Source of the DNA: a virus | Lineage: Duplodnaviria > Heunggongvirae > Uroviricota > Caudoviricetes | Virus record (IMG/VR): IMGVR_UViG_2700989364_000009 | DNA length: 5,097 nucleotides | Direction: 5' to 3' (one strand) | The notes under the pieces: generated by a model | Told to the model about the DNA's origin: nothing | Seen by the model: only the letters and a program-made list of their open reading frames with translations | The model's database searches: none | Shown here: piece after piece, positions 1 to 5,097 of the stretch | How positions within the stretch are numbered: the first letter of the stretch is position 1 | How the letters are laid out: every line of letters starts with the position of its first letter | Made by a program: the position numbers and the translations under genes

Positions 1-568
1 TTTGGCTGTACCAGCCGGGGGCAGGCACACCGCGCCGGGCTGTGGCTGATTAAAACAGAACTGCTGGAAACGCAGACCGTGGACTTCAGCGTGGGCGCAG
101 AAGGGCTTCGCCATGTGCCGGGCGATGTCATTGAAATCTGTGATGATGACTATGCGGGTATCAGCATCGGCGGGCGCGTGCTGGCGGTAAACAGCCAGAC
201 CCGGACGCTGACGCTCGACCGTGAAATCACGCTGCCATCCTCCGGTACCATGCTGATAAGCCTGGTTGACGGAAGTGGCAATCCGGTCAGCGTGGAGGTT
301 CAGTCCGTCACCGACGGCGTGAAGGTGAAAGTGAGCCGTGTTCCTGACGGCGTTGCTGAATACAGCGTGTGGGGGCTGAAGCTGCCGACGTTGCGCCAGC
401 GCCTGTTCCGCTGTGTGAGTATCCGTGAGAACGATGACGGCACGTATGCCATCACTGCCGTGCAGCATGTACCGGAAAAAGAAGCCATCGTGGATAACGG
501 GGCGCACTTTGACGGCGACCAGAGCGGCACGGTGAATGGTGTCACGCCGCCAGCGGTGCAGCACCTGA
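1..568 (+). repeat. Block C copy 1 (568 bp), divergent allele of the repeated central J block
   Basis: Aligns base-for-base with 891-1458, 1623-2190 and 3290-3857. About 15 substitutions versus the other copies in its first 360 bp; last ~200 bp near-identical to C2. Confidence 0.85.
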
Positions 569-573
569 ACTGA
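1..573 (+). CDS. J: 5'-partial fragment of phage tip attachment / host-specificity protein J (central block C, copy 1); ends at a TGA created by a rearrangement junction
   Basis: Frame 1 is open from base 1 ([35 protein letters not shown]...PAVQHLN*); the track ORF 79..573 is the same frame from its first ATG. I recognise this peptide as the central region of lambda-type J. Stop TGA at 571-573 lies just after the junction at 568/569. Confidence 0.6.
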
Positions 574-596
574 CCACACAGCGCAAGGCGTGGGAT

Positions 597-3338: not shown

Positions 3339-3857
3339 TTAAAACGGAACTGCTGGAGACGCAGACCGTGGATTTCAGCGTGGGTGCTGAAGGGCTTCGT
3401 CATGTACCGGGCGATGTCATTGAAATCTGCGATGATGACTATGCCGGTATCCGCACCGGCGGGCGCGTGCTGGCGGTGAACAGCCAGACCCGGACGCTGA
3501 CGCTCGACCGTGAAATCACGCTGCCATCCTCCGGCACCACGCTGATAAGCCTGGTTGACGGGCAGGGGAATCCGGTCAGCGTGGAGGTCCAGTCCGTCAC
3601 CGACGGCGTGAAGGTAAAAGTGAGCCGTGTTCCTGACGGTGTTGCTGAATACAGCGTGTGGGGGCTGAAGCTGCCGACGCTGCACCAGCGATTGTTCCGC
3701 TGCGTGAGTATCCGTGAGAACGACGACGGCACGTATGCCATCACCGCCGTGCAGCATGTGCCGGAAAAAGAAGCCATCGTGGATAACGGGGCGCACTTTG
3801 ACGGCGACCAGAGCGGCACGGTGAATGGTGTCACGCCGCCAGCGGTGCAGCACCTGA
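3210..3857 (+). repeat. Direct repeat unit B(partial)+C, copy 3 (648 bp)
   Basis: Offset +1667 from 1543-2190; essentially identical to copy 2 apart from the G-cluster and one B substitution. Confidence 0.85.
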
Positions 3858-5097
3858 CTGCCGAAGTCACCGCAGACAGCGGGGAATATCAGGTGCTGGC
3901 GCGCTGGGACACGCCGAAGGTGGTGAAGGGCGTGAGCTTCCTGCTCCGTCTGACCGTAACAGCGGATGACGGCAGTGAGCGGCTGGTCAGCACGGCCCGG
4001 ACGACGGAAACCACTTACCGCTTCACACAACTGGCGCTGGGGAACTACAGGCTGACAGTCCGGGCAGTAAATGCGTGGGGGCAGCAGGGCGATCCGGCGT
4101 CGGTATCGTTCCGGATTGCCGCACCGGCAGCACCGTCGCGGATTGAGCTGACGCCGGGCTATTTTCAGATAACCGCAACGCCGCATCTTGCCGTTTATGA
4201 TTCGACGGTACAGTTTGAGTTCTGGTTCTCGGAAAAGCGGATTGCGGATATCAGGCAGGTTGAAACCACAGCCCGCTATCTTGGCACGGCGCTGTACTGG
4301 ATAGCCGCCAGTATCAATATCAAACCGGGCCATGATTATTACTTTTATATCCGCAGTGTGAACACCGTTGGCAAATCGGCATTCGTGGAGGCTGTTGGTC
4401 AGCCGAGTGATGATGCATCCGGTTATCTGGATTTTTTCAAAGGCGAGATAGGGAAAACCCATCTGGCTCAGGAGCTGTGGACGCAGATTGATAACGGTCA
4501 GCTTGCGCCTGACCTGGCTGAAATCAGGACGTCCATTACGGATGTCAGCAATGAAATCACGCAGACCGTCAATAAGAAACTGGAAGACCAGAGTGCGGCA
4601 ATTCAGCAGATACAGAAGGTTCAGGTTGATACAAATAATAACCTGAACAGCATGTGGGCTGTGAAGCTGCAGCAGATGCAGGACGGACGCCTTTATATCG
4701 CGGGTATTGGTGCCGGTATTGAGAACACCCCTGACGGCATGCAGAGTCAGGTGCTGCTGGCGGCGGACAGGATTGCGATGGTTAATCCTGCGAATGGCAA
4801 CACAAAACCGATGTTTGTTGGTCAGGGCGATCAGATATTCATGAACGACGTGTTCCTGAAACGCCTGACGGCCCCCACCATTACCAGCGGTGGAAATCCA
4901 TCGGCATTTTCCCTGACTCCGGACGGAAAGCTGACCGCTAAAAATGCGGATATCAGTGGCAGTGTGAATGCGAACGCCGGGACGCTCAACAATGTCACGG
5001 TAAATGAAAACTGTACGATTAAGGGCATGCTGGAGGCGACTCAGGTCAGAGGTGACTTCGTTAAAGCTGTATCCAAATCATTTCCGAAACAGGCTGG
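3212..5097 (+). CDS. J: J-like tail tip / host-specificity protein, 3'-partial (runs off window); blocks B(partial)-C-D'-E, a different allele of the C-proximal region
   Basis: Frame 2 is open from 3191 (TAA at 3188-3190) to the window end; it is absent from the ORF track because it has no stop in the window. J homology begins at 3212 ([31 protein letters not shown]...) and continues to ...[51 protein letters not shown]. Candidate starts are GTG 3233 and ATG 3281, but the true start is probably upstream in the intact gene. Confidence 0.6.
3858..4442 (+). repeat. Block D allele 2
   Basis: Counterpart of 2191-2775 at offset 1667; flanking homology then decays into a variable segment. Confidence 0.8.

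Follow-up and report, generated by a model that had tools for sequence, protein, structure and literature searches.

Content and organization of the window

The window, which is the whole stretch of DNA analysed here (5097 bp), comprises the full length of CXFR01000279.1, a record in the draft assembly GCA_001261595.1 of Shigella sonnei. Its sole content is sequence of the lambdoid J gene, which encodes the tail-tip (host-specificity) protein. The intact J gene of phage Evi (CDS 1271-4684) was used as the reference, and positions in it are given below as ref. By BLAST, the 5097 bases of the window are reduced to about 2.1 kb of any intact J gene. Matches were found in 250 phage records and in 4,635 of 5,426 complete E. 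coli genomes, where they are annotated as gpJ or host specificity protein J. A comparison with intact J genes had been proposed in an earlier note on this DNA, made from the letters alone. It was run on these phage and complete E. coli records: in each of them the window maps to one collinear stretch of about 2.1 kb, and the scrambled order of the window occurs in none.

The window is built of four pieces. Piece 1 (1-568, plus strand) corresponds to ref 2576-3143 (about aa 436-624) with 97.5% identity in BLAST; it is in frame 1, carries an allele designated 'a' and contains the Pfam domain Phage-tail_3. Piece 2 starts at 570. Its forward part (570-1458, plus strand) corresponds to ref 2255-3143 (about aa 329-624), is in frame 3 and is a mosaic of alleles 'b' and 'a'. 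Its 3' end (1449-1495) folds back onto the minus strand and corresponds to ref 3184-3138, which is the natural sequence just downstream in J. Piece 3 (1497-3208, plus strand; 1496-3208 in BLAST) corresponds to ref 2450-4161 (2449-4161 in BLAST; about aa 394-964) and is in frame 3. It begins as allele 'b', continues as a short-form distal allele 'x' and contains the domains Ig_J, Ig_J_second and Phage_Tail_Tip. Piece 4 (3210-5097, plus strand) corresponds to ref 2496 to about 4299 (about aa 409-1010) and is in frame 2. It aligns in two plus-strand BLAST segments (3210-4481 with ref 2496-3768, and 4651-5097 with ref 3853-4299), and begins as allele 'b' before continuing as a long-form distal allele 'y' with 63 + 21 extra nt. 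When the three frame segments were scanned with Pfam, these four domains were found in their normal order, with E-values from 1e-31 to 1e-65.

The repeat structure described in the earlier note was recovered by a repeat search. A block named C is present four times (1-568, 891-1458, 1623-2190 and 3290-3857), its starts being 890, 732 and 1667 bp apart; the block that precedes it has three copies and the block that follows it has two. Over 568 nt, the copies of block C are 94.0-99.3% identical in pairwise comparison. The BLAST map onto the Evi J gene likewise bore out that every junction is a backward jump, and the reading frames 1, 3 and 2 were retrieved from the ORFs and from the codon phase counted from the Evi CDS start. 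An intact J gene is one continuous ORF of about 1130-1160 codons located between tail assembly gene I and lom. Such an ORF is absent in the window, which consists of three frame segments, has a stop at 571-573 and lacks flanking genes. The missing ORF is attributed to scaffolding and not to biology, because the junctions are N in the deposited record, as described below.

Single-N gaps at the junctions

The window was compared base by base with CXFR01000279.1. Exactly three differences were found, at 569, 1496 and 3209: each is an A in the window and an N in the record. These positions, whose status as N had been missed in the earlier note, coincide exactly with the three junctions; the context of the first one is CACCTGA-N-CTGACC. 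CXFR01000279.1 is a scaffold of four contigs (1-568, 570-1495, 1497-3208 and 3210-5097) split by single-N gaps. With N at every junction, neither sequence nor reading frame exists across them, and the spacings and frame shifts are therefore meaningless. The continuous sequence that a genuine duplication would have across each junction is found at none of the three, and the N that a scaffolding artefact would leave there is present in the deposited record at all of them. The earlier note had computed frame shifts across the junctions and, as its main claim, had described nested duplications with such shifts that scrambled and probably inactivated a J gene. The arithmetic has no continuous sequence to act on, and the claim itself is not supported, every junction being an N in the public record. 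SSPACE is said, in its manual, to write a single N if the gap estimate is zero or negative and there is no detectable overlap; this rule for negative gaps was not found in the papers searched.

Two other explanations of the junctions were discarded. The extra A at 569 and 3209 had been considered as untemplated bases resulting from A-tailing or from PCR megaprimer chimeras, and this was dropped as the public record has N. Template-switch models (FoSTeS/MMBIR, or chimeras of multiple-displacement amplification) for the jumps and the inverted piece were needless once the junctions were recognized as gaps.

J alleles present in the pieces

Alleles were told apart by site-by-site comparison of the pieces and by alignment with four intact J genes. 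Piece 1 (allele 'a') differs from the other three copies of block C at 27 sites between ref 2632 and 2926, mostly at third codon positions, and over the same interval pieces 2, 3 and 4 carry allele 'b'. Between ref 2966 and 3046, pieces 1 and 2 are alike and differ from pieces 3 and 4, and piece 2 is therefore a b/a mosaic: it is of type 'b' up to ref 2926 and of type 'a' from ref 2966, the switch taking place within 40 nt. A private A at 1445 is a natural variant, matched at 100% in ETEC genomes. Over about 720 nt, pieces 3 and 4 differ only at five sites peculiar to piece 3, and they diverge beyond this stretch. The distal part of piece 3 is nearly identical to the J gene of E. coli 14EC007 (short form), and piece 4 is 98.2% identical to that of E. 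coli 377323_2f (long form); no piece matches the complete E. coli genomes above this value. Judged from these sites, at least three distinct J alleles are present in the window, set apart by 27, 8 and more than 300 differing sites. The joined pieces come from different copies of one repeat, as would be the case in a scaffolding artefact. Complete E. coli genomes have a median of 3 and a maximum of 14-15 J copies, and the copy number and integrity of J in this S. sonnei lineage are read from these relatives and from one other S. sonnei draft.

Local errors and side features

The inverted piece of 47 nt at 1449-1495 had been missed in the earlier note. The strand switch lies at a natural inverted repeat of 10-11 nt, CAGCACCTGA(T), the shared word being 11 nt long in the allele to which the inverted piece corresponds. 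In 11 complete E. coli genomes, J alleles in forward orientation match the reverse complement of the piece at 100%, and this reverse complement represents yet another natural allele. A GapFiller closure, a chimeric read or a Velvet error at a contig end may each have produced the fold-back, and would do so equally well.

A cluster of four substitutions to G (1797, 1801, 1810 and 1812, plus strand) is private to piece 3. Each of them is nonsynonymous (R>G, V>G, V>G and N>D) and follows a G. The natural differences between alleles, by contrast, are mostly synonymous. They are absent in all 7,951 J places of the complete E. coli genomes, where the best match is 87 of 91 bases. These substitutions are probably base-call errors carried into the assembly. 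Dark-G errors of the two-colour Illumina chemistry were considered for them and judged unlikely, as run ERR042794 (lane 6350_1) appears older than those instruments; this dating is presumed from the accession.

Long antisense ORFs are present on the minus strand at 300-2942 (880 aa) and 2942-4462 (506 aa), as codon-aligned shadows of the J frames. TTA, CTA and TCA codons account for only 1 of 879 and 1 of 629 codons in the sense frames, and for this reason the antisense strand is almost devoid of stops.

Search for the junctions elsewhere

Junction probes of 102-146 nt gave no contiguous match among the 15,451, 16,785 and 7,433 J places found in complete E. coli genomes. A seeming match to junction 3, in H89, was rejected: an internal deletion affects this J gene, where 479 bp separate the two halves, and the junction is a different one. 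The exact word of junction 1 was absent from viral, metagenome and GTDB genome contigs, and that of junction 3 was absent from viral contigs. A genuine duplication could be expected to recur in related genomes or in other assemblies, and the same junction was found in none of those searched.

The ORF at 597-3338, which spans one N gap and the fold-back, has a 913-aa product that is on record for CXFR01000279.1 only. Deposited as CST65831.1, "host specificity protein [Shigella sonnei]", this product is a singleton in a clustering of about 15 billion proteins. CST65831.1 is very probably a database entry for a protein that does not exist.

J sequences in other draft assemblies

J alleles are likewise strung together in a second S. 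sonnei contig, CXCD01000247.1 (4543 bp), which belongs to the same project and accession series and was made with the same pipeline. One N, at 2925, stands within a few bases of a jump back from lom to J, at a place different from the jumps of the window. A second backward jump is free of N; it coincides with a 10-nt word that both sides share exactly, TGTTGGTCAG (1470-1479). Positions 1470-2174 of this contig are 100% identical to 4393-5097 of the window, and the sequence after them is collinear with J as far as its end, which shows that 'y' is a normal J allele of S. sonnei. Such a difference in junctions between two isolates of a clonal species fits an artefact, not an inherited rearrangement. 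The default of GapFiller is to close a gap once the two extensions have an overlap of 10 nt or more (PMC3446322). The 10-nt words at the fold-back and in CXCD01000247.1 equal this default minimum, which is suggestive and is taken as a lead only, since the word has 11 nt in the allele corresponding to the fold-back and the setting of the pipeline may differ.

In an E. coli draft (JAGUDU010000014.1, at the end of a 123-kb contig), a J stretch of 355 nt is repeated at 8153-8852 with 98% identity and a spacing of 345 nt (115 codons, in frame). Among those complete genomes that were listed as matches, the halves of this junction are two separate pieces within a 355-bp span and are not contiguous. 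The repeat probably arose as an artefact at the contig end and is less likely to be a natural additional Ig-like domain. The score of P0002 (1095 aa, 161-kb contig) is inflated in a similar manner.

Origin of the scrambled order

CXFR01000001-CXFR01000385 are found in the supplement of Page et al. (2016) under S. sonnei, with study ERP000568, sample ERS025895 and run ERR042794 (PMC5320598), and the assembly is therefore counted among the products of the Sanger pipeline. In this pipeline, assembly with VelvetOptimiser and Velvet is followed by scaffolding with SSPACE (16 rounds, down to five linking read pairs) and by gap closure with GapFiller (120 rounds), and the contigs that have been joined are separated by N (PMC5320598). 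Scaffolding by read pairs, on which an artefact of this type depends, is one of its steps. SSPACE and GapFiller are greedy and, according to the authors of the pipeline, "can lead to false joins" (PMC5320598). A coverage of about 100-fold is typical of the data set, and the Velvet/SSPACE/GapFiller pipeline was reported to account for about 30% of the GenBank bacterial assemblies in 2016 (PMC5320598).

In all likelihood the window is a scaffolding artefact, in which J-allele contigs of S. sonnei were chained across three single-N gaps, and not a contiguous part of a genome. The strain would have three or more J alleles, located in different prophages or their remnants. Because these alleles share long identical stretches (about 720 nt in pieces 3 and 4), read pairs issued from one copy would also map to the contigs of the other copies. 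SSPACE would then link, and place end to end, contigs that in fact represent one gene region in parallel versions, and GapFiller, with no bridging read, would leave the gaps open. Further local errors, in the assembly or in the reads, would account for the inverted 47-nt tail of piece 2 and for the G substitutions at four sites in piece 3. The earlier note had offered, as a second possibility, an assembly chimera of several near-identical prophage J alleles. This one is supported by what was found: at least three alleles, a scaffolding pipeline with a warning of false joins from its own authors, and junctions that were encountered nowhere else in the collections searched.

A genuine rearranged and inactivated J pseudogene, produced by nested or tandem duplications or by unequal recombination between prophages, with the Ns standing for tiny unsequenced gaps, is very improbable. 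No sequence exists across any junction, and a coverage of about 100-fold with 120 rounds of GapFiller should have closed a gap of truly zero length. SSPACE did need existing read-pair links to join the contigs (PMC5320598), decaying prophages are plentiful in S. sonnei, and J pseudogenes that have internal deletions or frameshifts are known in complete E. coli genomes. Against such a pseudogene, the copies are different alleles that are up to 6% apart, which is unexpected for a recent duplication. The three junctions are all different and occur in none of about 15,000 other J copies, the predicted product is a singleton, and another isolate of this clonal species has a different chain.

Contamination with E. 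coli or Shigella DNA, or a mixed culture, is an equally doubtful source of the alleles; contigs of different organisms would then have been chained. The best match of any piece in complete E. coli genomes is only 98.2% identical, and no allele can be pinned to one genome, which would suit a mixed input. Several J copies in one genome are normal, however, with the median of 3 and the upper range of 14-15 given above for complete E. coli genomes. In addition, an independent S. sonnei assembly contains 705 nt of allele 'y' without a single difference, which makes contamination a needless assumption.

The joining of the contigs implies at least five read pairs for each neighbouring pair, so that some physical proximity is conceivable. 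The read-pair links might then reflect a real cluster of nearby J fragments, for instance a prophage remnant rearranged by illegitimate or IS-mediated recombination, with the Ns hiding short joins. Very little probability is given to this reading. A chain of parallel J-allele contigs produced by scaffolding is retained as the origin of the window, and the scrambled J is not a biological feature; its value is methodological only. The replacement of N by A in the window made scaffold joins look like true rearrangement junctions with computable frame shifts. Drafts made with Velvet, SSPACE and GapFiller can hold short "contigs" that are made wholly of chained multi-copy prophage genes, and such records yield deposited proteins that are absent in nature, here CST65831.1 (913 aa). 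Former N positions should be masked or flagged in genome scans.

Comparison with known systems

Each piece of the window has 91-98% DNA identity to the annotated J genes of lambdoid phages and prophages and is, in this respect, of the lambda type (gpJ). The window differs from a lambda-type J gene in that it covers only about aa 329-1010 of 1137 (the middle and distal region), up to four times and from different alleles. The N-terminus, the C-terminal receptor-binding end and the flanking genes are lacking. Natural mosaicism of J, which results from recombination between lambdoid prophages, resembles the window in having long identical blocks followed by divergence, as in pieces 3 and 4, and in the allele switch of piece 2. 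Natural J mosaics are collinear and in frame, though, and do not have one segment repeated up to fourfold as in the window. The false joins described for SSPACE and GapFiller, in which parallel contigs of repeats or alleles are laid in tandem (PMC5320598), are the same as what is seen in the window, and nothing substantive differs between the two.
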